Shown here: positions 1,497-59,848 of the stretch, one piece after another
How the letters are laid out: each line of letters begins with the position of its first letter
Numbering within the stretch: the first letter of the stretch is position 1
Sequence record: OM953433
Reading direction: 5' to 3' (one strand)
Length of the DNA stretch: 64,000 nucleotides
Source of the DNA: Shigella phage Henu11
Position numbers and translations under genes: made by a program
The notes under the pieces: generated by a model
What the model was told of the DNA's origin: nothing
The model's database searches: none
Seen by the model: only the letters and a program-made list of their open reading frames with translations

Positions 1497-3323
1497 ATGA
1501 CTAAATCACTTTATGCAGTACCAGCAGCACTTAATGCAGATGCCTACAAATCTGGCCATTTCTACCAGTATCCAGATGCTACACAGTATCTTATGCTGAA
1601 CTTAACACCTCGTGGAGATAAATGGTTTAACTCTCCGTTAGAGATTGATGGTGTTGTAGCCTTTGGTATTCAGCGTTTTGTAAAAGACTATCTGGTAGAC
1701 CACTGGAATGCAACGTTCTTTGAACGTGATAAGAAAGAAGCCATTGACGAAATCTTGGAAATCATGAATGGTGTCCTTGGTGCAGATGCTATTGGTCGTC
1801 AACATTGGGAAGAACTTCATGACTTGGGTTACCTACCTGTTGAAGTCTACTCTGTAGAGGAAGGTACAATTGTCCCTATGCGTGTCCCGATGATTGTCTT
1901 TAAAAACACTGTAGAGGGATTCCATTGGGTAGCTGGTTACCTTGAAGATGCTTTCTCTGCTGAAATCTGGAAGGCTTGTACGATTGCAACTATTGCACTG
2001 CATTACAAACGTATCTGTAAACAATGGGCTGACAAGACCTGTGACAATGACTTCCATTTACCTTGGCAGTGTCATGATTTTGCAATGCGTGGTATGTCTG
2101 GCTTCACAGATGATGCTTTTAATGCTGTAGGTCACTTGACCAGCTTTAAAGGTACTGACAGCTTCCCTGCTGTGTATACTGCTAAACGTGCTTATGGTCA
2201 GTTTATGACAATCAGTGATATTGGCAACTCTGTACCAGCAACTGAACACTCTGTGATGTGTGCAAACATTTCATGGAATATGAAAGACCTGACAGAAGAG
2301 GATATTCACTCACAGTACATTATGCAGTCTGAAGGATTACTAGATGCCAAACGTTGGCGTGGTGAGGTAGAAACTTTCCATCGCCTTCTGACAGAAGTTT
2401 ACCCAACTGGTATTGCAAGTGCCGTATCAGATACTTACAACTTCTGGCGTACTGTTACACAGATTCTGCCAGAGCTACGTAATGTAATTCTGAATCGTGA
2501 TGGTAAGTTGGTAATTCGTCCAGACTCTGGAGACCCTGTTCACATTGTTACAGGTTACAAAGCCGTTGAATGGGAAACTGCTAAGTCAATGTTCTACAAG
2601 CACATGAAAGGTCTTGCACCAGATAATACCCATCTGCATGACACAATCTTGAATTGTGAAATGTCTGATATTGGTTTTGGGTTCTCTGCTTGGTTAATCT
2701 CTGAAGGTTATGAGATGGTTGTTGAAAATGAAGATTTTGATTATATTGACACAATCAACCTGATTACCGCTCAGAAAACTGGACAGTTTACTGTGAAGCG
2801 TATGTTAACAGCAGAAATTGATGGAGCTATACACACGCTGTATAACATCTTTGGTGGCACTGTTAACTCCAAAGGGTACAAAGTACTGGATGAGCACATT
2901 GGGCTAATCTACGGTGATTCTATCACTCTGGAAAGGGCTAATGAGATTCTGTCACGTCTTGCTGATAAAGGTTTTGCAAGTTCTAACGTAGTGTTTGGTG
3001 TAGGCTCATACACCTATCAGTACCTGACTCGTGACACCTTTGCATTTGCTGTTAAAGCAACTCTTGCACAGATGGATGGTCAAGAAATTATGCTGGCTAA
3101 AGACCCTAAAACTGACAGCGGTCTTAAGAAGTCTGCTTTTGGTGGAGTTGTCCCTATGTGGGATGGTGACAAGCTGGTAGCTGTAGATGGTTTTGGCTTT
3201 GCAGAGTTTGAAGGTGCAATTGACAACTGTCATAGTGCTTTGAAACTGGTATTTAGTAACTCGCAACCTTATGGTTACGTTAACCTGCGTGATGTTCGAA
3301 ATACTATTGACAAGCAACTTTAA
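1497..3323 (+). CDS. nicotinamide phosphoribosyltransferase (Nampt/NadV) family protein, 608 aa
   Basis: ORF track; N-terminal ADAYKSGH motif typical of Nampt family; immediately downstream of the Prs-like gene. Confidence 0.7.
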   Translation: MTKSLYAVPAALNADAYKSGHFYQYPDATQYLMLNLTPRGDKWFNSPLEIDGVVAFGIQRFVKDYLVDHWNATFFERDKKEAIDEILEIMNGVLGADAIGRQHWEELHDLGYLPVEVYSVEEGTIVPMRVPMIVFKNTVEGFHWVAGYLEDAFSAEIWKACTIATIALHYKRICKQWADKTCDNDFHLPWQCHDFAMRGMSGFTDDAFNAVGHLTSFKGTDSFPAVYTAKRAYGQFMTISDIGNSVPATEHSVMCANISWNMKDLTEEDIHSQYIMQSEGLLDAKRWRGEVETFHRLLTEVYPTGIASAVSDTYNFWRTVTQILPELRNVILNRDGKLVIRPDSGDPVHIVTGYKAVEWETAKSMFYKHMKGLAPDNTHLHDTILNCEMSDIGFGFSAWLISEGYEMVVENEDFDYIDTINLITAQKTGQFTVKRMLTAEIDGAIHTLYNIFGGTVNSKGYKVLDEHIGLIYGDSITLERANEILSRLADKGFASSNVVFGVGSYTYQYLTRDTFAFAVKATLAQMDGQEIMLAKDPKTDSGLKKSAFGGVVPMWDGDKLVAVDGFGFAEFEGAIDNCHSALKLVFSNSQPYGYVNLRDVRNTIDKQL

Positions 3324-3337
3324 AACAGTATGATAAG

Positions 3338-3359
3338 AGGCTCCTACGGGAGCCTTTTT
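3338..3359 (+). terminator. rho-independent terminator
   Basis: aggctcc-tacg-ggagcct hairpin followed by TTTT. Confidence 0.6.
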
Positions 3360-3376
3360 AATTTGTGGAGATTACT

Positions 3377-3712
3377 ATGAAAATTAAACAGATGAATGTT
3401 AATTTAATCATTGAAGAACGTTGGGAAAACATTAAGCGTCCTGAAGATGGTCATAAGTTTATCAATGAACTGTTTCAAGCAGCACAATCAGAGTTAGCTT
3501 CTGAGATTTATACAACGGTTACTTTGAAGGTCTATATCAAAGGTCTTCCACAGAACCATCAAGAAGCTCTTGATTTGTTTCAAGAAGAATTTTACAATCC
3601 AAACAAAAAGATACTTGAGAATAGTTTTGCAGTATCTTCGAGTATTGTTCATGACAGAAGTTTTGTCCTATTCAGAACTATAGGAGATAAGGTATGCAAG
3701 GTTATTGGTTAG
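3377..3712 (+). CDS. hypothetical protein
   Basis: ORF track; start moved to ATG 3377 with GGAG 8 nt upstream. Confidence 0.5.
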   Translation: MKIKQMNVNLIIEERWENIKRPEDGHKFINELFQAAQSELASEIYTTVTLKVYIKGLPQNHQEALDLFQEEFYNPNKKILENSFAVSSSIVHDRSFVLFRTIGDKVCKVIG

Positions 3713-3873
3713 AAATTGTTCTTTCACTCGGTTGTATAGTTGCTATTGCAATGTTACTATGCAAGTACTTCTCAGAGACTGAACCTTGTGATGAGTGTGA
3801 AGGTTCTGGGGTAGTTGGTATAGGTCATTGTTGCCCTTACTGTAATGGAACTGGAAAGAAATTTAAAAAGTAA
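3694..3873 (+). CDS. small membrane-anchored zinc-ribbon protein (59 aa)
   Basis: Unlisted ORF below the track size cut-off; GGAG SD at 3683; hydrophobic N-terminus then CDECEG...HCCPYCNG. Confidence 0.35.
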   Translation: MQGYWLEIVLSLGCIVAIAMLLCKYFSETEPCDECEGSGVVGIGHCCPYCNGTGKKFKK

Positions 3874-6388: not shown

Positions 6389-7510
6389 ATGACTACTAAG
6401 ACTAAAGCACAAATCGACGCAGAAATCTATGCACTGGTTAAAGAAGGTAAACTGACCAAAACTGCAATCGCTCTGAAGTATAACACTTCAACCCGTTCGG
6501 TAGGTCGTGCTGTAGAGCGCCATGAAGCAACGCTGCTGTCAGGGAAAACCAAAGCAAAACCTGCAAAGACTCTGAAAGATATTGCAAAGAGTGCTAAGAA
6601 AGTTAAAGCGACCAAGAAGGTATCTAAGCAGAAACCTGTTGCAAAAGCTGTTAAAGAAGCAGTCAAAGCAGAACCTGTAAATGCTCTGCATGAAGCAATG
6701 CAGAATAACAGCCAGATTGAATACATGATTACTGGTGATTCTGTTATCATGACTTTCGGTGCAGAGTCTGAGATTGTTGAGTCAACTCACCCTAACTACA
6801 CTGATATTGTAATGGCTGTTGTTTCAGGTGAGTACAAGAAAGCTTTTGAACTGATGAACATTCGCAAGTCTATTGAGAACTTCACTCAAGGTGCTGTAAC
6901 CATCAAAGGTGACAACCTGTATTACGGTGCTGTTCAGATGCGCTCAACTCTGGTAGACCGTATTCTGGATATGATGAAGAAAGGTGATAATGGCTTTGTT
7001 CGACTGATTGCATTCTTTGAAAAACTGATGGAAAACCCATCAAAAGACTCTGTAGAACAACTTTGGGGCTTCGTATCACACCTCGATGTTGAAATTGATG
7101 AAGAAGGTTATATCATCGGTTGGAAGAAAGTCACAACTCGTGGTGGTAAACTGTTTGACTCTCGTACCTGCAAAGTTCCAAATGATTTGGGTAACATTGT
7201 AGAGATGCCACGTTGGATGGTTGATAATAACCGCCATGTAACCTGCTCTCAGGGTCTGCACGTTGGTGCTTGGGATTATGTAACTAGCTTCTCTGGTGAC
7301 ACTATCCTGAAAGTTCGTGTTCATCCTCGTGATGTTGTTTCAGTACCAACTGACTACAACGACATGAAAATGCGAGCTTCCCGTTATGAAGTTGCAGCGA
7401 TTGTAAATAGTCGCCGTGAAATCATCAAAGAGTGGGATGGTTCAGAAGCACTTCACGTAGTTGTAGGTACTGCTGGTGAACTGATTTCTCAGCGTAAACG
7501 TGAAGTTTAA
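6389..7510 (+). CDS. rIIB: rIIB-like protein
   Basis: LVDRILD, ENPS, KVRVHPRDVVSVPTDYNDMKMR motifs resemble T4 rIIB; adjacent to rIIA. Confidence 0.8.
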   Translation: MTTKTKAQIDAEIYALVKEGKLTKTAIALKYNTSTRSVGRAVERHEATLLSGKTKAKPAKTLKDIAKSAKKVKATKKVSKQKPVAKAVKEAVKAEPVNALHEAMQNNSQIEYMITGDSVIMTFGAESEIVESTHPNYTDIVMAVVSGEYKKAFELMNIRKSIENFTQGAVTIKGDNLYYGAVQMRSTLVDRILDMMKKGDNGFVRLIAFFEKLMENPSKDSVEQLWGFVSHLDVEIDEEGYIIGWKKVTTRGGKLFDSRTCKVPNDLGNIVEMPRWMVDNNRHVTCSQGLHVGAWDYVTSFSGDTILKVRVHPRDVVSVPTDYNDMKMRASRYEVAAIVNSRREIIKEWDGSEALHVVVGTAGELISQRKREV

Positions 7511-7526
7511 TAAGTAAATTCCTAAA

Positions 7527-7550
7527 GGGGCTGCTTCGGCAGCCTTTTTT
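7527..7550 (+). terminator. rho-independent terminator
   Basis: ggggctgc-ttcg-gcagcc hairpin plus T6. Confidence 0.6.
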
Positions 7551-7570
7551 ATTTGAAAAATGTGCAGGTT
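7543..7570 (+). promoter_or_regulatory. sigma70-like promoter TTGAAA-N16-TATAAT
   Basis: ttgaaa 7543-7548, tataat 7565-7570. Confidence 0.5.
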
Positions 7571-7611
7571 AGTGTATAATTATCTGCATGTTTAACAAAA
7601 TAGGAGTGCAA

Positions 7612-8160
7612 ATGAAGAAATTTGTTTTAGGTTTGTGCTTATTCTTTACAGCACATTTAGCTACAGCGTCTGACTGTCCAGAGCTTACAATCAGCCAGAA
7701 AGTTAATATGTTAAAAGCATATAACTATGGCGAAGGACAGATGGGAAAAGGTTGGGGAATCCCTTTAGCAGCTATAGCCTTACAAGAGTCACAATTAGGT
7801 GTCATGTTAGAAAATAAAAAGACTCATGATTATGGTGTTTTCCAAAATCACTTGAAGACTGTTGTAAAGCGTAACAAGGTATCTCCAAAGGTTGCTAAGA
7901 AGAAGCTAGTAAGTGACTTCCATTACTCAGCGAAAGAGGCTCATAAGGAGCTATTATTCTGGACTAAGGTTCATGGTAACCCAGATGGAAAGTACTCTAT
8001 GAAGCGTGTCCTAGCTTCTTATAATGCTGGTTACAAATACAAGATTCCAAAGGCTAGACAATACTCTCAAGATGTGTACAATAACATGAAACTGCTTGCT
8101 CAATGTGAGTTTGCAACAAACATTAAAAAGGTAAAATATGAGCGAATCAAAACAATTTGA
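7612..8160 (+). CDS. secreted protein with lytic-transglycosylase-like motif
   Basis: ORF track (start moved to ATG 7612 behind AGGAG); signal peptide MKKFVLGLCLFFTAHLATA; AIALQESQ...YGVFQN resembles SLT domain. Confidence 0.45.
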   Translation: MKKFVLGLCLFFTAHLATASDCPELTISQKVNMLKAYNYGEGQMGKGWGIPLAAIALQESQLGVMLENKKTHDYGVFQNHLKTVVKRNKVSPKVAKKKLVSDFHYSAKEAHKELLFWTKVHGNPDGKYSMKRVLASYNAGYKYKIPKARQYSQDVYNNMKLLAQCEFATNIKKVKYERIKTI

Positions 8161-8833
8161 TATGGTTCTGTGTCATGCTTATGATATTAAGCCACTTGAT
8201 TTAGATATCAGTTCTGCAAGTTGGTCAGATATTGCTAAAGCTGACTTTGCAGATACAGCAAGAAATGTTGTGTGTAGATTTGAAGACTTCCACTCAACAA
8301 AGACACAGATTCCTTGTCAGGATTTGCTAACAGGTAAAACTGTAGATGTTGGTCGTAACAGCCTTATCTTGGTTGCAAAGAACTTGGAAGAAAAACGTAA
8401 AATGGTCTTAGCAGACATTGACGGTGTTCTTACAAGCTTTAATAAGGAGCTTAATGCAACTTTGTTAGATGATGGTACTTACTCACAGTATACTAACTTG
8501 GTAGACTCTCGCAGAGCTAAACCAACATATGTTTTTAACATCCTGTGTGGTATATCAAGAAATGCTGATATAGGATTCTTAACTGCTCGTGGAGAATCAC
8601 AAAGAGTTGTCACACATCTTTTCCTGAATGAGAATGTAGACAGTGATTTCCTACTGTTTATGCGTGGATTTGGTGACAATGAGATTAGTGCAGAAAGTTT
8701 GAAAGTTCGTATGCTTCAGTCTTGCATTCTACCTTACTATGATGTAGTATGCTTTATAGAAGATACAGTGAAGAACGTGGCAAAGGTTGAAAGAATCTTA
8801 CCACACATCAAAACAATGCTTGTTAAAAACTGA
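8138..8833 (+). CDS. hypothetical protein
   Basis: ORF track 231 aa. Confidence 0.55.
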   Translation: MSESKQFDMVLCHAYDIKPLDLDISSASWSDIAKADFADTARNVVCRFEDFHSTKTQIPCQDLLTGKTVDVGRNSLILVAKNLEEKRKMVLADIDGVLTSFNKELNATLLDDGTYSQYTNLVDSRRAKPTYVFNILCGISRNADIGFLTARGESQRVVTHLFLNENVDSDFLLFMRGFGDNEISAESLKVRMLQSCILPYYDVVCFIEDTVKNVAKVERILPHIKTMLVKN

Positions 8834-8844
8834 GAGAGTAAACC

Positions 8845-9309
8845 ATGCAAAATATTATTACAGTAGCTATCGATGCTTCCGGTAACAAATCACAGATAGT
8901 TCGTGAGATTATCAAAAGTAATTTCGATGGTAAAATCTTTCGTGCAGTAAACGTGAAAGCTGATGGTAACATTCGTGAGTATCGTGCAATGTTGAATGTC
9001 ACAAAACACGTTAAAGGTGTTGGTTCAACTACTGCTCATAAAGAAAATCTGATGACTATCTATGATATGGGTATGGCTTCAGAGTTAGGTGCAAAAGGGA
9101 TTGTACAATCCGGTGCTCCTTACCGTTCTTTCAATCTGGAAACTGCTCTTATGCTTTCCTTTACAAGTGGTTCTCAGACTACCACTTACCTCTTCACAGA
9201 TACTGCAACGGTTTCTGCGATTAAGGATAATACCATTAAGGCTGGCGTAGCTGCTGCTTCAAAAGCCTCAACAATGGCAGCAAATGTCCTTGCGAAAGTT
9301 CTTGGTTAA
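8845..9309 (+). CDS. hypothetical protein
   Basis: ORF track 154 aa. Confidence 0.55.
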   Translation: MQNIITVAIDASGNKSQIVREIIKSNFDGKIFRAVNVKADGNIREYRAMLNVTKHVKGVGSTTAHKENLMTIYDMGMASELGAKGIVQSGAPYRSFNLETALMLSFTSGSQTTTYLFTDTATVSAIKDNTIKAGVAAASKASTMAANVLAKVLG

Positions 9310-9320
9310 AGTTATTATAG

Positions 9321-9342
9321 AGGCTCCTTCGGGAGCCTTTTT
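9321..9342 (+). terminator. rho-independent terminator
   Basis: aggctcc-ttcg-ggagcct hairpin plus TTTT. Confidence 0.6.
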
Positions 9343-9361
9343 CATTTCTAGGAGAAGTTAA

Positions 9362-9709
9362 ATGACGTTTAAAGAATTTTGTCAAGCAGCTTTTGTAATC
9401 ATTTTCTTAATAGGTGTTGGTGCTTGGGGAGGTTACACTTACAAGACCAGTCAAGTTAATGAAAAGGAGTTAACTAACCAGAGACTTGTAAGTGTTGCTA
9501 AAGATGCTTATCAAGAAGGTTTATCAAATCTTAGCTCCAATTACAAAAATGATTTGAAAGATGTGCTTGCTAAAAACAAACACACCAAAGAGGTATTGAA
9601 CTATGAAAAAACTAAGACAGTCTTTATTAATGATTGTGCTACTGAGCCTTATGTCAGGGTGTTCAACGAACAAAGTGAACAGTACCTTCAAAAACTCCCA
9701 AGTAAGTGA
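9362..9709 (+). CDS. membrane protein, i-spanin-like (N-terminal TM plus charged helical region)
   Basis: ORF track; N-terminal hydrophobic segment FVIIFLIGVGAWGG; 3' end overlapped out of frame by a lipoprotein ORF. Confidence 0.45.
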   Translation: MTFKEFCQAAFVIIFLIGVGAWGGYTYKTSQVNEKELTNQRLVSVAKDAYQEGLSNLSSNYKNDLKDVLAKNKHTKEVLNYEKTKTVFINDCATEPYVRVFNEQSEQYLQKLPSK

Positions 9710-9872
9710 GAGTGACAAGTACACTCAAGAAGAAGCACGATATGAGGTTAAAGGCACTAAAGGTGAAGACCTTGCAAGTGCTCTTGAGTTTTATCGTGAT
9801 GGTTACTATGAATGTACTATTAAGGCAAACAATTTAATTGATATGATTTTGTTAGGGAATAGGCAGCAATGA
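9603..9872 (+). CDS. lipoprotein, o-spanin-like
   Basis: ORF track; signal peptide with lipobox LMSGC; begins inside 9362..9709 in another frame. Confidence 0.4.
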   Translation: MKKLRQSLLMIVLLSLMSGCSTNKVNSTFKNSQVSESDKYTQEEARYEVKGTKGEDLASALEFYRDGYYECTIKANNLIDMILLGNRQQ

Positions 9873-10138
9873 CAGAGAAGAATGAAACATTTTTTGTGGA
9901 AGGTTATCTTCTGTTACCAAGACCAAATAACACTTACATGAGATTTGACATTATGCCAACGGTTATGGATGATGTAACTTGTCACATCTTTATGCAGGGT
10001 GTTTCTGCACAACTTAAACATGTTGGAAGAGATTGCAAAATACGTGTTGACAACCATCCTGAAATCAACGAGAATCACTACACATGGTTCGGAGAAGAGT
10101 CTAAAGAAATCTATGCAGTCCTTAAAACGAGGAAGTGA
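9869..10138 (+). CDS. hypothetical protein
   Basis: ORF track 89 aa. Confidence 0.45.
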   Translation: MTEKNETFFVEGYLLLPRPNNTYMRFDIMPTVMDDVTCHIFMQGVSAQLKHVGRDCKIRVDNHPEINENHYTWFGEESKEIYAVLKTRK

Positions 10139-10144
10139 GGTTTA

Positions 10145-10474
10145 GTGATGCAACTAGATGGTAAGAATTATGTAGCCGTCTTTTCAGACGGTGAGAAAGA
10201 AATTGGTACAGCACAAGTCTGTCACAGTGGTAAAGAGTTTCTCTATGGGGTTGTTGCATTCATTGGTACTCGTGGAGATATGAAGTCTTTTAAAGATTGT
10301 GTTGACAAGCTTGAAGAATCCATAGAGAATCATTGGTGTCTGATATGGCTTAATGCAGAGAATGTTAAAGAACGCTATGCAAAAGTTGGTATCCATATTG
10401 AAAGCATCGAACATGTTGACCTGTTTGAGCTAACTGAAAAGGTGATGTATGAAAGCAATTCTGGTAAGAAGTAA
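10145..10474 (+). CDS. hypothetical protein
   Basis: ORF track 109 aa. Confidence 0.45.
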   Translation: MMQLDGKNYVAVFSDGEKEIGTAQVCHSGKEFLYGVVAFIGTRGDMKSFKDCVDKLEESIENHWCLIWLNAENVKERYAKVGIHIESIEHVDLFELTEKVMYESNSGKK

Positions 10475-10685
10475 AGTTACACGTCAAGTGTTAGTAGGGG
10501 CTATATTTGTTGGACGGGATGAGGTAATACCATTCATGAACCCCTTGATTCACTACAACTTCAAGATAGGGGATTTTAAACACTACCTGAATCCTCTGCT
10601 TACAAGATTAAGCTTAGAAGAGTTTAAGTGTAATTACTCTTATGAAGGTGATACATACTTCCAAGAGGTAATATCAAATGGCTGA
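10449..10685 (+). CDS. hypothetical protein
   Basis: ORF track 78 aa; overlaps neighbours. Confidence 0.35.
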   Translation: MKAILVRSKVTRQVLVGAIFVGRDEVIPFMNPLIHYNFKIGDFKHYLNPLLTRLSLEEFKCNYSYEGDTYFQEVISNG

Positions 10686-10878
10686 TTTCTGCACTAAGTG
10701 TTCTGTTGAGATGTTTGGAAAAGATACAGGAGACTTAAAAGGTCTCTTTACAAAGGCAGAATTTAAAGCTGGTTCAGCAATGCCAGTAATCTGTGAAGGT
10801 TGCGGTGCTTTATGGGTAGACCATGAAGGTAACCGAGTTAAACCATCTGAAGATAACGAACGTTGGGAGCATTACTAA
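10678..10878 (+). CDS. small Cys-rich (zinc-ribbon-like) protein
   Basis: ORF track; CTKCS...CEGCG. Confidence 0.4.
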   Translation: MADFCTKCSVEMFGKDTGDLKGLFTKAEFKAGSAMPVICEGCGALWVDHEGNRVKPSEDNERWEHY

Positions 10879-10879
10879 T

Positions 10880-11674
10880 ATGGGTATCGTAAAAATTATT
10901 AAAGGTGATATCTTTAAAGATTTTGATGGTAAGAAGTTTGATATCATTGGTCACGGTTGTAACTGCATGAACTTGATGCCAGCAGGTATCGCAGCAACAA
11001 TTGCTAAACGCTACCCAAAAGCTTATGAAACTGACGCTGAAGTTTATGCTACAGTAGGTGGTGAAAATCATAACCCTAAGCATCTAATGCTTGGTAACAT
11101 CTCTGTAGCACGTTTTAAGCAGGGTCGAATTGCTAACCTTTACACTCAGGTTATCACTGGCAAAGATGCACGATACAACGCCTTAGAAGCAGCTTTACAG
11201 CGTCTTAACAACTACTGTAAAGTTAATCAACTTAAGAAAGTTGGGCTTCCGATGATTGGTGCAGGGATTGGTGGTCTTGATAGCATGGCTGTACTGTCCA
11301 TTATCAACCAGACTATGAAGGATGTTGACGTTTATATGTATGTCTATGAAGATAAGATGTACAGTCAGTTGACTAGTCCTGTTACTGGTTGGGAGAACTT
11401 CAGTGAGCCTCAATACTTTGATGGTGTTGCTGTGGTAGGCAAGGATAAAGTTACCCTCAAGGTGAAGCGTAATGGCAAGGTACACACCAGTTACCCTCCG
11501 GTTGAGAAGTACAATCGAAGTAACGCTCAAGTTACCCACCCGTTACAAGGCCACCACCACAGAGCGGTAACGTTTGGCGATGATGCAAGTGTATATATCA
11601 ATGCGACTACAGAAGAGTTTGCAGAAGATTATATCACACATGAAAACGTAAACTATGTTGAAGCACGTAACTAA
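10880..11674 (+). CDS. macro-domain-like protein with C-terminal extension
   Basis: ORF track with start moved to ATG 10880; GDIF...DIIGHGCNCMNLMPAGIAATIAKRYP and VGLPMIGAGIGGLD resemble macro-domain signature blocks. Confidence 0.5.
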   Translation: MGIVKIIKGDIFKDFDGKKFDIIGHGCNCMNLMPAGIAATIAKRYPKAYETDAEVYATVGGENHNPKHLMLGNISVARFKQGRIANLYTQVITGKDARYNALEAALQRLNNYCKVNQLKKVGLPMIGAGIGGLDSMAVLSIINQTMKDVDVYMYVYEDKMYSQLTSPVTGWENFSEPQYFDGVAVVGKDKVTLKVKRNGKVHTSYPPVEKYNRSNAQVTHPLQGHHHRAVTFGDDASVYINATTEEFAEDYITHENVNYVEARN

Positions 11675-11744
11675 TAAGTTACCCAGATAAACATAGACAA
11701 GCCCTCCAAAGTTTGAGTTTAAAATCTCAGGTAAGGAGGGCTTT

Positions 11745-11930
11745 TTCATTTTAAATTTGTGCAGGTATAGTTGCATAGAACTCTGGACAGATTTCTTTAG
11801 CTGAACTCCAAAGGGAAAATTCATTTCAAATTTGTGCAGGTTTAGACTCCAAAGGGGTTTTTCATTTTCAATCTGTGCAGATGCAGTTGGACTCCAAAGG
11901 GAAAATTCATTTTCAGTTTGTGCAGGTAGG
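11745..11930. repeat. four tandem copies of a ~50-65 bp unit ending in TTCATTTT-N-TTGTGCAGGT
   Basis: copies end near 11766, 11831, 11881, 11928. Confidence 0.6.
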
Positions 11931-12643: not shown

Positions 12644-13024
12644 ATGAAATATCGTGCGCCTAAATTTATCAACAAAGAAAACTTTCGTAGTATCTTAGAG
12701 GAAACTATGAAAGAAAACTTCAAAGGAAAAATAATTGTTGTTCACGCTTACAATTTTAAGTATGATGTTAATGGTAACCGTATCAACCACTACAAAGCTA
12801 CTATGCTTGACGGTACATTATCCGGTGAAAAAGCTATCATAAATGCTATTGCAGGACGTGGTAAAACTGTGATACGATGCGAAAAAAGACGCTATCAAGG
12901 CGGAAAATATGGATATGAAGATGCAATGTATCATCTTGATAAAATGGGGTATGATGTAGAGAAAGCTGGAGTATCCCAAACTATTGGTAGTGACGGCTAC
13001 GTTACAGTTTTCAAAATTAATTAA
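12644..13024 (+). CDS. hypothetical small early protein
   Basis: ORF track; conserved leader. Confidence 0.55.
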   Translation: MKYRAPKFINKENFRSILEETMKENFKGKIIVVHAYNFKYDVNGNRINHYKATMLDGTLSGEKAIINAIAGRGKTVIRCEKRRYQGGKYGYEDAMYHLDKMGYDVEKAGVSQTIGSDGYVTVFKIN

Positions 13025-13033
13025 ATAAAGTCC

Positions 13034-13062
13034 TTTACATGGGGTTTATAGTTAGATAAGAT
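13034..13062 (+). promoter_or_regulatory. hairpin-embedded promoter TTTACA-N17-TAAGAT
   Basis: same cassette architecture. Confidence 0.4.
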
Positions 13063-13114
13063 AAGCCCCAGATAAAGAGCTTTACCAACAATCAACCTAA
13101 ACTGGAGTATCAAA

Positions 13115-13372
13115 ATGGCTACTATCAAAAACATCATTGTATCTGCAAAATCTCGTGATGACGCTCGCGCAACTGCTAAAAAACTAAATGGTAAAGTGGT
13201 TGACAACGGAAAAGAATCTGCTGTAAGATGGGGCGTGAAATGTGATAAGGAAATTACTTTAAAACGTAGTTCCTATGACCTTTTCAAAGGTGTAAAAGCA
13301 ATCGGTAGAACTAACGTCTACACGAAGAAAGGTTATAAAATGCACTTATCATTAACTGACAATTTAATCTGA
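13115..13372 (+). CDS. hypothetical small early protein
   Basis: ORF track; conserved leader. Confidence 0.55.
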   Translation: MATIKNIIVSAKSRDDARATAKKLNGKVVDNGKESAVRWGVKCDKEITLKRSSYDLFKGVKAIGRTNVYTKKGYKMHLSLTDNLI

Positions 13373-13380
13373 TAAAGTGC

Positions 13381-13409
13381 TTTACATGGGGTTTATAAGT
13401 TGCTAGTAT
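13381..13409 (+). promoter_or_regulatory. hairpin-embedded promoter TTTACA-N17-TAGTAT
   Basis: same cassette architecture. Confidence 0.4.
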
Positions 13410-13464
13410 AAGCCCCAGATAAAGAGCTTTACTAACCAATAGTCCTAAACTGGAGAATCTTAAT

Positions 13465-13977
13465 ATGTCATACGTTGAAGCTACCTTTGAAGTTCAAAAA
13501 GAAAAATTCACTATCATCTATGAAGCTGTTAATATTTGTGAAGCATCCCATTGTGTGGAAAATTGGAAGTTTACCGATGAGCACAAAGGCGGGGTTACAA
13601 TCAAACTTAAAAATCCAGAGCGTAACGGGTACAAATATGCAATTCCACAGCATTACAGCCTTTCTCAATTGATGAGTGATTATGCTAAACAAGGCCGCGA
13701 AAATCCATCTATAGAGGCTTACAAGAGCTTACAAGATGAATTACAAAGAGATTTAGAGGCTAACAGCTATGTACTATTTGCAAAGGTAGAAGATAAAGAA
13801 GGTAATACGGTATTAAATAGCTTTTCACTTGCTTATGGTTTCGATTGGTGTTATCTTGACGGGGAAGATTTAGATTCACGATTAGAAGAGGAAGTGTCGA
13901 ACTCCGATGGAGAATCTGAAGTAATGGAACGTTTGGAAGACTTGAAAGATTCTGTTATGAATATCTTTAATATCTAA
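13465..13977 (+). CDS. hypothetical early protein
   Basis: ORF track; conserved leader. Confidence 0.55.
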   Translation: MSYVEATFEVQKEKFTIIYEAVNICEASHCVENWKFTDEHKGGVTIKLKNPERNGYKYAIPQHYSLSQLMSDYAKQGRENPSIEAYKSLQDELQRDLEANSYVLFAKVEDKEGNTVLNSFSLAYGFDWCYLDGEDLDSRLEEEVSNSDGESEVMERLEDLKDSVMNIFNI

Positions 13978-13982
13978 AGTGC

Positions 13983-14011
13983 TTTACATGGGGCTATCAA
14001 GTTGATAAGAT
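13983..14011 (+). promoter_or_regulatory. hairpin-embedded promoter TTTACA-N17-TAAGAT
   Basis: same cassette architecture. Confidence 0.4.
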
Positions 14012-14060
14012 AGCCCCAGATAAAGAGCTTTACCAACAATCCTAAACTGGAGAATCTAAA

Positions 14061-14357
14061 ATGTTTATTGCCGCAAACGTTAGAACTAAATTAAGCCAGC
14101 TATTAAGCAATATTCAATTCATTGAATCCATGCGCCGTACCTCTGAAGCCGTAGAATGGTATCACGGAAAGATTGACAAAAGGGAAGTTGTGATTTGTGT
14201 ATGGAGCTTTTGTAAAGAATACAGAAAGCCGTTGCTTCAGATAGATATCTATGATAATGCTAATAAATCAGCTATTAAATCCACAAAAGATATGGTAGAT
14301 TCTTATGAAATTAGTCACACTGGTAAACTATTCCACAAAGGTAAAAACAAATGCTAA
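14061..14357 (+). CDS. hypothetical small early protein
   Basis: ORF track; conserved leader. Confidence 0.55.
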   Translation: MFIAANVRTKLSQLLSNIQFIESMRRTSEAVEWYHGKIDKREVVICVWSFCKEYRKPLLQIDIYDNANKSAIKSTKDMVDSYEISHTGKLFHKGKNKC

Positions 14358-14698
14358 TCACATACACTGCAATTTTTATCTCTATTGTGGCGCTCTATAA
14401 AGCCTTGCAAGCGCACAGTATAGCTAATAAGGCACTTACAAGGGATTTAAAAATAAATCTTGTACGGGGCTTTTTAGAGCGTTTGAGCTTAGAACAATTG
14501 AAACGTTTAGAGATGAGCTTTCGATTCAAAGCAGAGACATACCGGATTGATAACATCCTAGATGGTGATTTTAAATTAATCAGTGATTATGACATACTTC
14601 TTGAGTCAATTCAAGATATAAACCTGAAAGATTATTATATTGTAATAGCACAAGAAATTAATAAAAAAGAGCTTGCAATGCAGAATCAAAACAAGTAA
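14351..14698 (+). CDS. hypothetical protein with N-terminal TM segment
   Basis: ORF track; start overlaps upstream stop. Confidence 0.5.
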   Translation: MLITYTAIFISIVALYKALQAHSIANKALTRDLKINLVRGFLERLSLEQLKRLEMSFRFKAETYRIDNILDGDFKLISDYDILLESIQDINLKDYYIVIAQEINKKELAMQNQNK

Positions 14699-14756
14699 AG
14701 TATTCATCAACGGGGCAAGATAGAAGCCCCAACAATCCTAAACTGGAGAATCTAAA

Positions 14757-15029
14757 ATGTATACTACTAATGACGGTCGCACTTTGAACGTAACTTTAAA
14801 ACACTATGTAGACGGTGTATTAAACTTTGAAGAGTTAAGAGCAGAACAGCAACTATTAGATTGGCAAGTAGCAGGTTTACAAAAAACCGCTACAGGATAT
14901 GGAAAGAAAATTCCTACATCTTGGAAAGTTCGATACCTTGGAAAGTTACGCAGAATTTATCAAGATGTTTATAGTAATAGCGGTGTAAGTTACATTATTG
15001 TTAGTGGTAAAAAGTTGTATTTAGTCTAA
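14757..15029 (+). CDS. hypothetical small early protein
   Basis: ORF track; conserved leader. Confidence 0.55.
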   Translation: MYTTNDGRTLNVTLKHYVDGVLNFEELRAEQQLLDWQVAGLQKTATGYGKKIPTSWKVRYLGKLRRIYQDVYSNSGVSYIIVSGKKLYLV

Positions 15030-15037
15030 TAAATTGC

Positions 15038-15066
15038 TTTACATGGGGTTATCAAGTTGATAAGAT
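15038..15066 (+). promoter_or_regulatory. hairpin-embedded promoter TTTACA-N17-TAAGAT
   Basis: same cassette architecture. Confidence 0.4.
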
Positions 15067-15118
15067 AGCCCCAGATAAAGAGATTTACCAACAATCAACC
15101 TAAACTGGAGTATCAAAA

Positions 15119-15526
15119 ATGACTAATGTTAATCACAAAGAAGTTGCAATTTTGAAAGCACGTTTGACCATTAACCGCATCAACATTGTAACATCAGCAG
15201 CGCCAGACGAAACACTGCATAATATCATCGGCAAAATTCAGGGCGTAGTAGTAGACACAAAACAGCTTAAAGAGTCCTTGCAAGATGTAGCAGCAGGGGC
15301 TATAATTGACGGTGCTCAATATGAGATGAAGGAAATGCTGTCAAAGTCAAAAGTAATGAATAAAGAACTTGACTTGAAAATGTTTAGATTTGCTGTTAAA
15401 GTGTGGCTATGTGTTGATTTTGATGCAAACTTTGCAATTGCTGATTTCTTTGCAACATGGTTACAGCGTAACTTACCGGTCGAAGTTTTCCGTGAAATCT
15501 GCGATGCAATTTATTCAGAGATTTGA
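15119..15526 (+). CDS. hypothetical early protein
   Basis: ORF track; conserved leader. Confidence 0.55.
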   Translation: MTNVNHKEVAILKARLTINRINIVTSAAPDETLHNIIGKIQGVVVDTKQLKESLQDVAAGAIIDGAQYEMKEMLSKSKVMNKELDLKMFRFAVKVWLCVDFDANFAIADFFATWLQRNLPVEVFREICDAIYSEI

Positions 15527-15611
15527 TTGACATTGCAAAAGCATAGTAGTAGAGTACTCATCAACGGGGCAAGTTAGAAGCCCCAACAATCCTAAACTGG
15601 AGAATCTGAAA

Positions 15612-15860
15612 ATGTTTAATATGTTGAATATCCCTGACACTTGCCGACTCTTAACACAATTTGATAACCTTGGTAAGCCGTTTTTATATCATATGCCAGA
15701 TAACACTGCAAAAACTTACAGTTACATTGTAAACCGTTTTACGGCTTATGGTTCAAAGTATGGCTATAATGTCAAGACTCAAAAGGTGACTTTGTTCACA
15801 AGTATTGAAGAGTTACCAACTGTTGCCGTTAAACTAATCTTTACAAAGAAAACTAAATAA
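15612..15860 (+). CDS. hypothetical small early protein
   Basis: ORF track; conserved leader. Confidence 0.55.
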   Translation: MFNMLNIPDTCRLLTQFDNLGKPFLYHMPDNTAKTYSYIVNRFTAYGSKYGYNVKTQKVTLFTSIEELPTVAVKLIFTKKTK

Positions 15861-15865
15861 AGTCC

Positions 15866-15894
15866 TTTACATGGGGTTTAAAAGCTAGTATATT
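15866..15894 (+). promoter_or_regulatory. hairpin-embedded promoter TTTACA-N17-TATATT
   Basis: same cassette architecture. Confidence 0.4.
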
Positions 15895-15944
15895 AAGCCC
15901 CAGATAAAGAGCTTTACCAACAATCCTAAACTGGAGAATCTAAA

Positions 15945-16502
15945 ATGAAATGCTTCCACGGTACTACACAAGAAAACTTCGTAAATCTTATTAATGGCGG
16001 TGATAAACCATCAGGAGCTTGGAATTGCTCTGATATGGATGGATGTTTTTATGTCTACCCTGTTAGCAAGTTCTATGATGTAGAAAATCTGGATGACGAA
16101 CAAATCATAGATGAAGGTATTAGAAACGCGCTTGATAGCGCAAGCATTACAGCAGCCTATCAAATGAAGTCACAAAAACTTGTCATCTTGGAACTAGATA
16201 TTCCAGAAGATGATTTACAAGATGACTGGAGTTGTGAGAACATGAGCGACGTCGCAAGCTTTACAGAATATTTCGATAAAGAATGGATTAAAAAGGTTTA
16301 CACAACTGAATTTAATGCTATGTATGCGCCTTTCTTTGTCCCTAACCTGAATAATAGGAACTTGGGTTATATACCGGATGAGTTACACAACATTGCGGCA
16401 ATAGTTCAACGTAGTGATGAGATGAATAATGTTTATATTGATATCTTCGAGACTATGCAATGTAACGTAGCAGAAACGGCTATAAACGACTTAACAGCAT
16501 AA
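15945..16502 (+). CDS. hypothetical early protein
   Basis: ORF track; conserved leader. Confidence 0.55.
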   Translation: MKCFHGTTQENFVNLINGGDKPSGAWNCSDMDGCFYVYPVSKFYDVENLDDEQIIDEGIRNALDSASITAAYQMKSQKLVILELDIPEDDLQDDWSCENMSDVASFTEYFDKEWIKKVYTTEFNAMYAPFFVPNLNNRNLGYIPDELHNIAAIVQRSDEMNNVYIDIFETMQCNVAETAINDLTA

Positions 16503-16565
16503 ACGATAGAATCATACCAGTTCACTAGAAAAGCCCCGCACAGGGGCTTACAAGAGGCTTAAAAG

Positions 16566-16796
16566 ATGCTTACAACAATCTATCTTATCCTATCTATCTG
16601 CAATGGTTCACAATGTGACTTTAAAGGTCTGGAAGAGTTTACAGGTAGCGAAAATAATGCTATTGTTGCCTGTCAGATAGCAAGGCAAGACTACCCAACA
16701 TCGGATGATATCCAATGTTACTATAAATCAGAAGATGATGAAGGGATTTACTTTGATAGTGTGAATGGTGAATATGAGATTCTTATAGAAAAGTAG
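16566..16796 (+). CDS. hypothetical small protein
   Basis: ORF track 76 aa. Confidence 0.45.
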   Translation: MLTTIYLILSICNGSQCDFKGLEEFTGSENNAIVACQIARQDYPTSDDIQCYYKSEDDEGIYFDSVNGEYEILIEK

Positions 16797-16886
16797 TTGA
16801 CACTAAAAACGCAAACAAGTAAAGTATTCATCAACGGGAAGGAAACTTCCCCACTAAACAAAATTCCTAAACTGGAGAATCTGAAA

Positions 16887-17228
16887 ATGGCCTATGTAAC
16901 AATTATCACCGATAAAGAAAATTCGTCATGGTCTACCCAAGTTAACGACAAAATGACACCTATGCAGTGTCTCAAATACTTTGAGCAGTGGAACAGGGGA
17001 GAAGATGTAAGCCCCTTTCAAGTGATGCAGATTGTACATGTTGACAATGAAGGGAATAAAACTACCCTTAACACTGAGTACTATACTACACGTTTCGAGA
17101 CTCGCAAATCAGCTATGCAGGGTTTAAGAGAAAAGGGATATAGTCACATTGCCGCGCTCATTTGGTCTGATTTGCTTAAAAAACAGTCATTAACCTATGT
17201 TAAGCCAGAAAAAATCTTTATAAGCTAA
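16887..17228 (+). CDS. hypothetical early protein
   Basis: ORF track 16797..17228; start moved to the ATG directly after the conserved leader. Confidence 0.5.
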   Translation: MAYVTIITDKENSSWSTQVNDKMTPMQCLKYFEQWNRGEDVSPFQVMQIVHVDNEGNKTTLNTEYYTTRFETRKSAMQGLREKGYSHIAALIWSDLLKKQSLTYVKPEKIFIS

Positions 17229-17355
17229 TCAACAACTTATAAAAATCTTTTGAAAAACTATTGACAATGCCCCTTGACAAGTGTAACTTTGTTCGAGGGG
17301 GTTTATCTAAAAGGATTCACTTAAAAGATTCTTTATAGATAAGCGTAAAAAGTAC

Positions 17356-17384
17356 TTGCAAAGGTTTAATCATATCTATATAGT
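17356..17384 (+). promoter_or_regulatory. promoter TTGCAA-N17-TATAGT
   Basis: ttgcaa 17356-17361, tatagt 17379-17384. Confidence 0.45.
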
Positions 17385-17423
17385 ATCTTCAAAAGGCAAC
17401 TTCCTAAACTGGAGAATCACAAA

Positions 17424-17564
17424 ATGTTAGATATCATTAAAAACCCTATCCTTTGCGGTATGATTGTTTCTGTTGTGTTGCCATTAGCAATGCTCATCAT
17501 TGGTGAAATCTCAGATAAACTTTTTGATAAAAAACTACTTGCAATACAGAATCAAAACAAGTAA
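17424..17564 (+). CDS. small hydrophobic protein (46 aa)
   Basis: Unlisted ORF behind a leader variant; C-terminus LAIQNQNK mirrors the end of 14351..14698. Confidence 0.35.
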   Translation: MLDIIKNPILCGMIVSVVLPLAMLIIGEISDKLFDKKLLAIQNQNK

Positions 17565-17628
17565 AGTATTTATCAACGGGGAGGGAGACTTCCCCACTAA
17601 ACAAAATTCCTAAACTGGAGAATCTGAA

Positions 17629-18156
17629 ATGAACAAGTTCCAAGCAATTAATCATATCCGTTCCAATGCAGTAATGAGCAAGCCAGTAAAAGACACCTTC
17701 GAATTCCGCTGTAATGATAAGTTGTTTGCAGTCATTACAAAAGGGGAAGATAAAAAGTATTATGTACATCGCCAAAACGTTAAGTTAGTAACAGCAGACA
17801 ACTTTATGAAAGCTGTTGCAACAATCCTACCGGATTTTATGGAACTGGTAGCAGAACTTTGTGAACACTGCATCAAGTCATCAAAGGCAGAATTAAACCG
17901 CTTTAAAATGGCTTATGAGCGTTCTATCAAGTCCCATAACATGTATATCATGCCATTGGCTTTTGGTACTCAGGCAATGGGAACAGGTTGTCATCCTTTC
18001 CACCTTTACGATGTAGAAAGCATTTACCTTAGTGAGTCAAAAGATATTGATTTTAGTTTACAGTTAGGACAAGCATTAAATGATATGATTAAATTACACG
18101 AAAAATCCGTAAAAGATATGCAAAAAGAGCTTGACGAAATCATCGTAAATCTATAA
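17629..18156 (+). CDS. hypothetical early protein
   Basis: ORF track; conserved leader. Confidence 0.55.
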   Translation: MNKFQAINHIRSNAVMSKPVKDTFEFRCNDKLFAVITKGEDKKYYVHRQNVKLVTADNFMKAVATILPDFMELVAELCEHCIKSSKAELNRFKMAYERSIKSHNMYIMPLAFGTQAMGTGCHPFHLYDVESIYLSESKDIDFSLQLGQALNDMIKLHEKSVKDMQKELDEIIVNL

Positions 18157-22128: not shown

Positions 22129-22635
22129 CTAAAATTTTAGGTTGCATTCTTTACTTACCTCTTCAAACTTACTCTCAAACTCTACAATCTTCTTCTTGTA
22201 AGTTGTCATTCTCAAACATGAGAGGATGATACCAACTATTGGAATCACATACAAGAACCAAATCTCAGAAATTTTCTTCTCAGCTTGGTTAAACGTTAAA
22301 TCCTGCATGTACATGCCACCGAATGAGATTACACAAATCATAGCAAGGAATACAGATAACATGATTGCTATTCCTGCCCACCCTCTGGTATTATGTTCAG
22401 CATTTCTACGCTTATTTTCCAGATTGATAAGTTCGTTGTAGTCTGCTGAGAAGTCTCTGTAGAAAGCTTTCAAGTACTCTCTGCTGTAACCTTCAAAACA
22501 TCCTGTACCAAACCAATTTTCACCTCCAAAGTGTGAAATAGTTCCTTCTTCACCGTTTGCTTTCACAATCTTGAAAGATACATGGTGTCTTGACTTCTCA
22601 TAAGAAATCTGGTCTCTTGAATCTTCATAAATCAT
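22129..22635 (-). CDS. membrane protein (two predicted TM segments)
   Basis: ORF track; hydrophobic stretches AGIAIMLSVFLAMICVISF and IWFLYVIPIVGIILSCL. Confidence 0.5.
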   Translation of the reverse strand: MIYEDSRDQISYEKSRHHVSFKIVKANGEEGTISHFGGENWFGTGCFEGYSREYLKAFYRDFSADYNELINLENKRRNAEHNTRGWAGIAIMLSVFLAMICVISFGGMYMQDLTFNQAEKKISEIWFLYVIPIVGIILSCLRMTTYKKKIVEFESKFEEVSKECNLKF

Positions 22636-25709: not shown

Positions 25710-26174
25710 CTATTTTGGATAAACAGCGTCAAGGTAAATCTTGGCTTCCAAACTACGTCTATTTTGTAGACCCTTGGAAGTTACTTTTTGACCATTCACT
25801 GTAATCTTGTTCCACCACTGCATAGCTTCTGCACAACCAACTTTATTACCAGCATTGTGACGCTTGATAAAAGTTGAATCCTGCATAGCACCGATACCAA
25901 TGTTGTAAGTCTCTACAACAAGTGCGTCAAATTCGTTCTGCGTAGTCGGAACCTTAATTGCTCTGTTTACTGCACCTACATAACTTTCAACATCTGCAAG
26001 GAGATATTGAACAGCTTGTTCAGCAGTAATCTTCATCCCCATTGTTACAGGTCTTCCGTTGATACGGATTGTTCCATAACCAATTGTAGGGATTCCAGCA
26101 GAGTCTTTATAGGCTTCTAAGCGAAGCCCTTCAAAGAACTTAATGGCTTCTAAGCCTTTACTTGAGAGTTGCAT
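25710..26174 (-). CDS. endolysin, GH24 lysozyme family
   Basis: EGLRLEAYKDSAGIPTIGYG catalytic-region motif; start placed at ATG 26174 behind GGAGG. Confidence 0.8.
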   Translation of the reverse strand: MQLSSKGLEAIKFFEGLRLEAYKDSAGIPTIGYGTIRINGRPVTMGMKITAEQAVQYLLADVESYVGAVNRAIKVPTTQNEFDALVVETYNIGIGAMQDSTFIKRHNAGNKVGCAEAMQWWNKITVNGQKVTSKGLQNRRSLEAKIYLDAVYPK

Positions 26175-26176
26175 TA

Positions 26177-26809
26177 TCAACCTCCTACTGCGTTAATAAC
26201 CACCTTGGCAGATTGGGATGTGATTGAGCCACCTACACCAGTTACAACACAAGAGTAAGTACCTTCATCATCAGCTTTAGAAGTCAGTGTCTTTTCATAT
26301 GTTGCAGATGTTGCTGAAGGGATATCTACATCATCTTTCTTCCACTGATAACCAGTTGCACCAGTGGCAACAACTGAAAGTGTAAGTGTTCCACCCTCGT
26401 TAACAGTTTGGTCAGTTGGCTGCTGTGTAATAACTGGAGGTGTGATTGCATCCTTCAACTTTGCATTAAGCATGGAGAAAGGTTTAACCCTTGCAAGCCA
26501 TTCACAGTAAATAGTGTCAACATCTTTACCGTTGATGATTGCATACTGCAAATCCATGAAGAAGTCAGCAGTTCTCATTTGAGCACCTACAGAGTATAGG
26601 AGTTCTTCAGAGAATGGAACTGTGTAGCTTGGGGTGTAGTTGAAATCGGTAACCTCAGCAATGTCTGACTCAGGCCACGGAGAGCTATATGTCAGTGGTA
26701 GCACAGCTTCTTGATACGTTCTGAAGTCGTATCTCTTACCAGCTTTAACATTCGCAATAAAAACTTTTACGAACTCTTTAAAATCTGGATATGTTTTTGC
26801 TTTAATCAT
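26177..26809 (-). CDS. hypothetical protein with C-terminal Ig-like domain; paralog of 26806..27174
   Basis: N-terminal 120 aa align with the neighbouring ORF; C-terminus GTYSCVVTG is Ig-like. Confidence 0.5.
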   Translation of the reverse strand: MIKAKTYPDFKEFVKVFIANVKAGKRYDFRTYQEAVLPLTYSSPWPESDIAEVTDFNYTPSYTVPFSEELLYSVGAQMRTADFFMDLQYAIINGKDVDTIYCEWLARVKPFSMLNAKLKDAITPPVITQQPTDQTVNEGGTLTLSVVATGATGYQWKKDDVDIPSATSATYEKTLTSKADDEGTYSCVVTGVGGSITSQSAKVVINAVGG

Positions 26810-59279: not shown

Positions 59280-59474
59280 ATGCCAACCATTCTAGCAATC
59301 CTCTTGAAAAATCTTGGGGCATTCTTCTGGAAGCTTCTACTTTCTCTTCTTAGCGAATACATGATTGAAAAAGTGTTCTTTAAGCTTGCAAGATACCTTG
59401 CGAGTAAAACAGACACACCTATCGATGATGAATTTGTAGATACCTTGGAAAAGGCTTTTAAGGGTGAAAAATAA
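59280..59474 (+). CDS. small hydrophobic protein (possible holin-like)
   Basis: ORF track 64 aa; hydrophobic N-terminus. Confidence 0.4.
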   Translation: MPTILAILLKNLGAFFWKLLLSLLSEYMIEKVFFKLARYLASKTDTPIDDEFVDTLEKAFKGEK

Positions 59475-59848
59475 TGAAGTGGATTGAAGAGGCTTTTAAG
59501 AACAACATTGGTGCAATTGTTGTAGGTATTTTCAGTGTAATTGGCATGTACACTACGATGCAGGTCTCTGATGGAAAGCAAGAAGTTTCTATCAACACAA
59601 AGTTACAACAGTTGGATAGTTACTCAAAAGGTAACTATTCAGCTATTCGTGATTTACAGTCTGATATGAAGCTCCTACAATTAGGGATGGAGAACCAGAA
59701 AGTTCAGCTAGAGAATGTTAAGGGAGAAAACGCTAAGTTGACTAAGACCCTTGATAAGTTCTCTGACAGTGTTAACAACTTAGCACAATCTGTATCAGCT
59801 TTGCAAGCAATTACAGAACAAAATACCCAAAGCACTAAAAAGAAATAA
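59474..59848 (+). CDS. membrane-anchored coiled-coil protein
   Basis: ORF track; N-terminal TM IGAIVVGIFSVIGMY then helical region. Confidence 0.45.
   Translation: MKWIEEAFKNNIGAIVVGIFSVIGMYTTMQVSDGKQEVSINTKLQQLDSYSKGNYSAIRDLQSDMKLLQLGMENQKVQLENVKGENAKLTKTLDKFSDSVNNLAQSVSALQAITEQNTQSTKKK

Follow-up and report, generated by a model that had tools for sequence, protein, structure and literature searches.

We conclude, at a probability that we put at about 0.93, that two overlapping genes of Shigella phage Henu11 (9362..9709 and 9603..9872, both on the + strand) encode a predicted two-component spanin of a Felix O1-like (Mooglevirus) myophage, which has the "overlapped" architecture and would disrupt the outer membrane at lysis. 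Coordinates are those of the window, that is, the whole 64,000-nucleotide stretch of record OM953433 that was analyzed. The sequence-only reading had taken the pair for an i-spanin and an o-spanin, and this identification is borne out by a match of the first protein to PHROG 1152, by the annotation of relatives, and by the Felix O1/Moogle entry in a published spanin census (Kongari et al. 2018, PMC6139136). The spanin pair of Henu11 is in this sense already known, being annotated in relatives and catalogued in the census.

The two genes and their overlap

The i-spanin gene (9362..9709, +) is an open reading frame (ORF) for 115 amino acids, assigned from its Rz-like PHROG match, hydropathy, homologue alignment, and the annotation of relatives. 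A Shine-Dalgarno sequence, AGGAG (9350..9354, +), can be read 7 nt before the ATG, and a ribosome-binding site (RBS) is annotated at the same place in Citrobacter phage Michonne. Residues 6-24 (FCQAAFVIIFLIGVGAWGG) form the most hydrophobic 19-residue stretch of the protein (mean Kyte-Doolittle 1.89), and a Kyte-Doolittle scan of the 115 amino acids revealed no second hydrophobic stretch. This transmembrane domain (TMD) is kept in all seven aligned homologues, in agreement with the earlier description of the first protein as membrane anchored. The predicted layout comprises a short cytoplasmic N terminus, a single TMD, and a periplasmic domain of ~90 amino acids, and the protein is expected from its sequence to adopt an N-in/C-out orientation. 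Toward the C terminus lies the conserved motif EK-x4-F-x-N-x-C-x4-Y-x4-N, in which E82, K83, F88, N90, C92, Y97, and N102 are invariant in the alignment; Cys92 is the single periplasmic cysteine and does not vary among the seven phages. The match to PHROG 1152, "Rz-like spanin," covers the full length of the protein (E=4e-38). AlphaFold, run on the single sequence, gave a mostly helical model at low confidence (pLDDT 41.8).

The o-spanin gene (9603..9872, +) encodes an 89-residue precursor and was assigned from PHROG matches, a conserved lipobox, and the annotation in Michonne. Its Shine-Dalgarno core, GAGG (9590..9593, +, within AAAGAGG at 9587-9593), was read from the sequence; it lies within the i-spanin coding sequence, 9 nt upstream of the o-spanin ATG, and an RBS is annotated for this gene in Michonne. 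A Shine-Dalgarno sequence also precedes the ATG in Felix O1, mistaenkt, and ESh21. The precursor begins with a basic n-region (MKKLRQ), followed by an h-region (SLLMIVLLSL) and the lipobox L-M-S-G-C with Cys20. The lipobox LMSGC named in the sequence-only reading is thus confirmed, together with the signal and Cys20, and it is kept in all homologues compared. The +2 residue is Ser, not Asp, so that there is no inner-membrane retention residue; in the homologues it is Ser or Thr. The mature protein would be 70 amino acids long and contains no proline. It has one further cysteine, Cys71, in the conserved C-terminal segment, invariant in the seven-phage alignment; the other invariant residues are C20 (the predicted lipidated cysteine), G54, N76, and L78. 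Matches were obtained to PHROG 4180 (E=1.5e-48), to PHROG 2425 (E=9e-11), which is the family of the Sergei and phiEco32 o-spanins, and weakly to PHROG 456, "Rz-like spanin." The single-sequence AlphaFold model, of low confidence (pLDDT 53.4), hints at a C-terminal helix preceded by a disordered linker.

Both ORFs occur at exactly the coordinates at which they had been proposed. The o-spanin ORF lies in the +1 frame relative to the i-spanin ORF and starts at i-spanin codon 81 of 115, the two sharing 107 nt. The architecture class is "overlapped" (P2 lysB/lysC type), not "embedded." The sequence-only reading was therefore right as to an overlap of the 3' end in another frame but not as to embedding, given that the o-spanin gene continues 163 nt past the i-spanin stop (9709 to 9872). 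A PROSITE-type lipoprotein-signal scan of the six frames of the 64 kb returned only two ORFs, of which that at 9603 starts with ATG and the second, of 55 amino acids at 61171, with TTG. Judged by these signals, 9603..9872 is the only convincing candidate lipoprotein gene of the window. Because the scan gave just two ORFs in 64 kb, we do not regard the position of a lipoprotein ORF over the 3' end of a membrane-anchored ORF as chance.

Relative to Felix O1, 11.2% of the nucleotides differ in the overlap, compared with 22.8% in the part that encodes only the i-spanin and 26.4% in the part that encodes only the o-spanin, so that the rate in the overlap is about half that of its flanks. In the o-spanin-only part, 25 changes are synonymous and 18 are nonsynonymous, i.e., the two kinds are about equally frequent. 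From the slow change of the overlap and this balance outside it, we infer real dual coding under purifying selection.

Conservation in close and distant relatives

The window belongs to a Mooglevirus (Ounavirinae, Felix O1-like myophage) with ~99% identity to Shigella phages KPS64 and Sf17. Over the region 7500-10500, identity is 96-99% to the Mooglevirus phages KPS64 and Sf13-Sf19 (Shigella) and Michonne and Mordin (Citrobacter), and ~215 other Felix O1-like records align at 60-80%. The same gene pair is labeled i-spanin and o-spanin in Michonne, KPS64, Sf13-Sf19, Mordin, and others. In Michonne, which was annotated by the Center for Phage Technology, the i-spanin is CPT_Michonne139 and the o-spanin is CPT_Michonne138; the relative coordinates and lengths are identical to those in the window, an RBS is annotated for each gene, and the proteins differ only by R41K in the i-spanin and by N23S, E55A, and R87K in the o-spanin. 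Michonne, KPS64, Felix O1, mistaenkt, and ESh21 all share the lengths of 115 and 89 amino acids, the 107-nt overlap, and the +1 frame.

Identity of the i-spanin is 99% to its counterparts in Mordin and Sf17, 76-77% to those in the Felixounavirus records sampled, and 77% to Felix O1 ORF6 in the alignment; between the o-spanin and Felix O1 ORF7 it is ~81%. A tblastn search with the i-spanin as the query reached 320 phage records, including Kuravirus (phiEco32-like) at ~34% and the siphophage Sergei at 28% identity, and one with the o-spanin as the query reached 266. For the phiEco32 homologue of the i-spanin, identity is 21% in the alignment and 33.6% over the tblastn match (E=1e-3). Seven loci were compared, from Felix O1, mistaenkt (Suspvirus), ESh21, Hafnia phage Zyzzx, Erwinia phage FIfi106 (Kolesnikvirus), the podophage phiEco32 (Kuravirus), and the siphophage Sergei (Sashavirus). 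Of these, Felix O1, mistaenkt, Zyzzx, FIfi106, phiEco32, and Sergei supplied the homologues aligned with the i-spanin. In every one of the seven loci, a +1-frame ORF starts in the 3' third of the i-spanin gene and ends past its stop. The o-spanin homologues begin with MK(K/R)L (MKRQSLKRRL in Zyzzx) and carry a lipobox of the form (M/T/I)(S/A)(G/A/S)C, with the cysteine at residue 20-26. The pair, its register, the lipobox, and one periplasmic cysteine per partner are thus kept across myo-, podo-, and siphoviruses.

The spanin census places the Felix O1-like i-spanins in an overlapped family named "JH2," which has 15 members, among them Felix01, Moogle, Mushroom, WV8, FO1a, and UAB_phi87 (Kongari et al. 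2018, PMC6139136), and which also includes phiEco32-like podophages, a link that our tblastn results reproduce; the corresponding "JH2" o-spanin family has 11 members, and the same Felix O1-like phages, but not phiEco32, are among them (PMC6139136). As a general rule, two-component spanins need one or more homotypic intermolecular disulfides, for which a periplasmic cysteine has to be available (PMC6139136), and the one conserved periplasmic cysteine of each Henu11 partner fits this rule. The homologous pair of Salmonella phage Sergei comes last in a holin-endolysin-holin/antiholin-i-spanin-o-spanin cassette, a position that connects the family with lysis without recourse to transferred annotation.

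Pfam and NCBIfam scans of both proteins gave nothing significant, and neither protein matched the lambda-type Pfam spanin families. The NCBIfam "lipoprotein" matches (E about 0.004-0.007) are far below the cutoff and reflect the signal peptide alone. A sequence search of the PDB with profiles of both families yielded no relatives, the top match being BamE (E=0.3), in the signal peptide region only.

Public records treat the o-spanin gene unevenly. In KPS64 (3176-3373), mistaenkt (1805-2011), and Zyzzx (3046-3225; coordinates in this paragraph are those of the extracted loci), it is annotated from an internal start codon, so that the signal peptide and lipobox are lost. The gene is uncalled in the FIfi106 record (2941-3216) and "hypothetical" in the Felix O1 RefSeq record (3501-3770). 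Despite these annotations, a full-length, lipobox-bearing ORF is present in all five phages. That overlapped o-spanin genes tend to be called poorly is a known bias of annotation (PMC6139136).

Neighborhood and dispersed lysis genes

The spanin genes sit amid genes of an early type (rIIB, polynucleotide kinase, and small ORFs). On the + strand, the local order is rIIB (6389..7510), a lysozyme-like protein that appears to be secreted (7588..8160, with the ATG at 7612 as the likely true start), polynucleotide kinase (8138..8833), a hypothetical protein (8845..9309), the i-spanin, and the o-spanin; this order is common to relatives (Felix O1 and Zyzzx, and in part FIfi106). Between the hypothetical gene and the i-spanin gene, a consensus scan found a putative terminator, a GC-rich hairpin with a T-run (9319..9340, +), and the equivalent site in Michonne is annotated "terminator." A run of small genes (+) begins at 9869, its first ATG overlapping the o-spanin stop. 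Promoter scanning near the pair gave only weak sigma-70-like matches, namely, 9290-9318 (+, 9/12), upstream of the hairpin, and 9657-9630 (-, 9/12), within coding sequence.

The lysozyme-like protein reads MKKFVLGLCLFFTAHLATA from M9, which resembles a signal peptide. It matches Pfam SLT below threshold (E=0.002) and also PHROG 600, which has no assigned function; in relatives it is named "putative lysin," "lysozyme-like domain," or "putative transglycosylase," whereas the Felix O1 annotation makes it a homologue of the T4 vs-regB intergenic ORF. Lying 1.2 kb upstream of the spanins, far nearer to them than the endolysin, it may be a second muralytic enzyme. Farther downstream, four copies of a ~43-nt direct repeat (70-100% identity, spacing of 41-75 nt) occupy 11724..11927, in a noncoding stretch after a macro-domain gene (10823..11674). 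The copies share the ending ...TTCATTTT(C)A(A/G)(A)T(T/C)TGTGCAG(G/A)T, and in one case the repeat overlaps a terminator-like hairpin. These copies may be repeated regulatory or promoter-terminator modules.

The window holds a complete dispersed set of lysis genes: the spanin pair occupies 9.4-9.9 kb, the endolysin gene 25.7-26.2 kb, and the gene of a putative holin 59.5-59.8 kb. An endolysin 16 kb from the pair on the other strand had been pointed out earlier, and it is indeed there as a soluble GH24 (T4-lysozyme-type) protein (25710..26180, -) that matches PHROG 7 (E=1.5e-55) and is syntenic with the endolysin/lysozyme of Sf17 and Michonne. The distance had been seen as an oddity; this does not stand, as a scatter of lysis genes is on record both for Felix O1-like phages and for T4, and the Moogle genome paper treats it as the usual state in the Felix O1-like group, comparable to that in T4. 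The putative holin (59474..59848, +; 124 amino acids) is identified by annotation only, from synteny with Sf17 gp107, "putative holin." A single N-terminal TMD is followed by a long, polar C-terminal region; the gene lies downstream of the tail-fiber genes, and its product belongs to PHROG 4038, which has no assigned function; the Michonne paper refers to "a putative class-III holin."

The topology of this putative holin, an N-terminal TMD followed by a long polar region, is also i-spanin-like. The stop of a 64-amino-acid hydrophobic ORF (59280..59474, +; PHROG 402, no function given) overlaps its start codon. A further ORF of 168 amino acids (22129..22635, -; PHROG 4343, no function given), 3 kb from the endolysin and on the same strand, has two hydrophobic stretches in its C-terminal half and is labeled "predicted membrane protein" in Sf17. 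The closest relatives, as seen in the Sf17 record (extracted locus 12858-17892), have a cluster of ~26 tRNA genes, with small ORFs among them, that is flanked by a DUF2828/RNA-binding protein gene and by the terminase gene; by synteny, such a cluster would be expected at ~30.7-35.8 kb of the window.

Comparison with known spanins, proposed mechanism, and alternatives

The Henu11 pair resembles lambda Rz/Rz1 in the predicted topology of both partners, in the periplasmic cysteine requirement, and in a presumed murein-gated membrane fusion. However, Rz1 is wholly embedded in Rz, whereas the Henu11 genes only overlap, and the lambda genes lie within the S-R-Rz/Rz1 cassette, unlike those of Henu11. 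Rz1 is also proline rich and unstructured, and its proline-rich region is essential; in contrast, the mature Henu11 o-spanin lacks proline, and its low-confidence model suggests a C-terminal helix. The gene arrangement is closer to that of P2 LysB/LysC, the prototype of the overlapped class, where, likewise, the i-spanin gene harbors in its 3' part the start of an o-spanin gene that is read in another frame and runs on past the i-spanin stop. P2 also has an i-spanin with a TMD at the N terminus and an outer-membrane lipoprotein as its o-spanin, as is predicted for Henu11. The two pairs are set apart by their census families, P2 versus JH2 (PMC6139136), and by location, the P2 spanin genes being part of a lysis cassette and the Henu11 pair lying outside one.

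T4 offers the closest parallel in genomic setting. Its PseT.3/PseT.2 proteins complement lambda Rz/Rz1, and their genes, classed as "separated," are far from e and t (PMC6139136). Lambda and T4 are the only two-component spanins that we saw described as tested. As in Henu11, the T4 spanin genes are thus remote from the holin (t) and endolysin (e) genes and close to a polynucleotide kinase gene, pseT, which they adjoin. The T4 proteins are of similar size (117 and 99 amino acids as annotated), and the T4 o-spanin also has no proline-rich region. The pairs differ in that the annotated ends of the T4 genes share few bases only, compared with 107 nt in Henu11; in that T4 has no cysteine in the i-spanin and two in the o-spanin, compared with one periplasmic cysteine in each Henu11 partner; and in their PHROGs (739/812 for T4 versus 1152/4180). 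BLASTP against T4 aligned PseT.3 over the TMD only (E=0.29) and gave no alignment with PseT.2. We considered common descent with the T4 spanins, as the shared polynucleotide kinase neighborhood might indicate, and rejected it because BLASTP shows no homology. In both T4 (134002-135781) and the window (8138..9872), the spanins are less than ~0.5 kb from the polynucleotide kinase gene with one small ORF between, but the order differs; the common location may be a coincidence or may reflect a shared regulatory neighborhood.

On this basis, the following sequence of events can be proposed. The 115-residue protein would be anchored in the inner membrane and expose ~90 residues to the periplasm, as its predicted topology implies, and the 89-residue product would be lipidated on Cys20 and Lol-sorted to the inner leaflet of the outer membrane. 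By analogy to lambda Rz/Rz1 and T4 PseT.3/PseT.2, the conserved C-terminal segments of the two partners would bind to form a periplasm-spanning complex, probably stabilized by homotypic disulfides of Cys92 in the i-spanin and Cys71 in the o-spanin. An intact murein meshwork would keep the complex inactive until the holin, putatively the product of 59474..59848, lets the soluble endolysin (25710..26180) destroy the peptidoglycan. Spanin complexes so freed would fuse the inner membrane with the outer one, and the final obstacle to phage release would thereby be gone. Since murein destruction, rather than spanin synthesis, would gate activity, the spanin genes need not adjoin the endolysin gene, and this gating would explain their position in the rIIB/polynucleotide kinase block.

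Other functions of the pair have to be weighed against this one. The sequence-only reading had offered a superinfection-exclusion pair as its alternative. In such an exclusion or membrane-protection system, an inner-membrane protein and an outer-membrane lipoprotein would block DNA entry or mask a receptor, comparable to T4 Imm/Sp or to the T5 lipoproteins Llp and Cor. Phage lipoproteins can serve exclusion, and a location in an early-type gene block far from the endolysin would suit such a role. However, the Sergei homologues fill the spanin slot of a canonical lysis cassette, the i-spanin ORF belongs to a PHROG annotated as Rz-like spanin, and the tight +1 overlapped pairing with co-conserved C termini and cysteines is a spanin signature; moreover, no other spanin candidate was seen in the window or in the annotated parts of the relatives compared. 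PADLOC at E<=0.1 gave no match for either protein or the flanking ORFs, which is a weak negative, as PADLOC is not a dedicated catalogue of exclusion proteins. Exclusion thus finds no support here, and we consider it very unlikely. The same low standing applies to a periplasm-spanning complex with a nonlytic or regulatory task, such as sensing or rIIA/rIIB-linked control of lysis timing, with the outer membrane being disrupted by other means. The proximity of rIIB and of the secreted lysozyme-like protein (7612..8160) would accord with such a task, as would an o-spanin without the proline-rich region that lambda Rz1 needs, and the spanin function of the Felix O1-type family has been assigned by homology, topology, and context, our literature search having found no experimental test of this family. 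Yet the functional T4 spanins also have a proline-poor, structured o-spanin and are encoded next to pseT, at a distance from e and t; a scan of the window turned up no candidate for a disruptin or u-spanin that could act instead; and the Sergei cassette context again speaks for lysis.

That only the 115-residue protein is real, with 9603..9872 being a chance out-of-frame ORF that is never expressed, is a reading to which we give almost no weight. It could appeal to the records in which the gene is omitted, shortened, or called "hypothetical" (FIfi106, KPS64, mistaenkt, Zyzzx, and Felix O1 RefSeq), but a bias against calling overlapped o-spanin genes is documented (PMC6139136). Against it, the start, Shine-Dalgarno sequence, and lipobox are kept from Mooglevirus to Kuravirus and Sashavirus, down to 27% amino acid identity to the window protein; the ratio of 25 synonymous to 18 nonsynonymous changes relative to Felix O1 indicates purifying selection on the part that encodes only the o-spanin; and the protein has a PHROG of its own (4180). 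An improbable variant of the spanin reading itself is that the Felix O1-type spanin is mechanistically distinct, bringing about fusion in a way unlike that of lambda Rz/Rz1 or having a second role before lysis, in exclusion or envelope remodeling. The proline-free o-spanin, its possibly helical C terminus, the one cysteine per partner, and the early-type gene block might be taken to point in that direction.

We therefore retain the two-component spanin as the function of the Henu11 pair, and the value of this result is mainly one of correct annotation, as several database entries for related phages leave the o-spanin gene out or start it at the wrong codon. A complementation result for the Felix O1-type spanins would add a third sequence type to those of lambda and T4.
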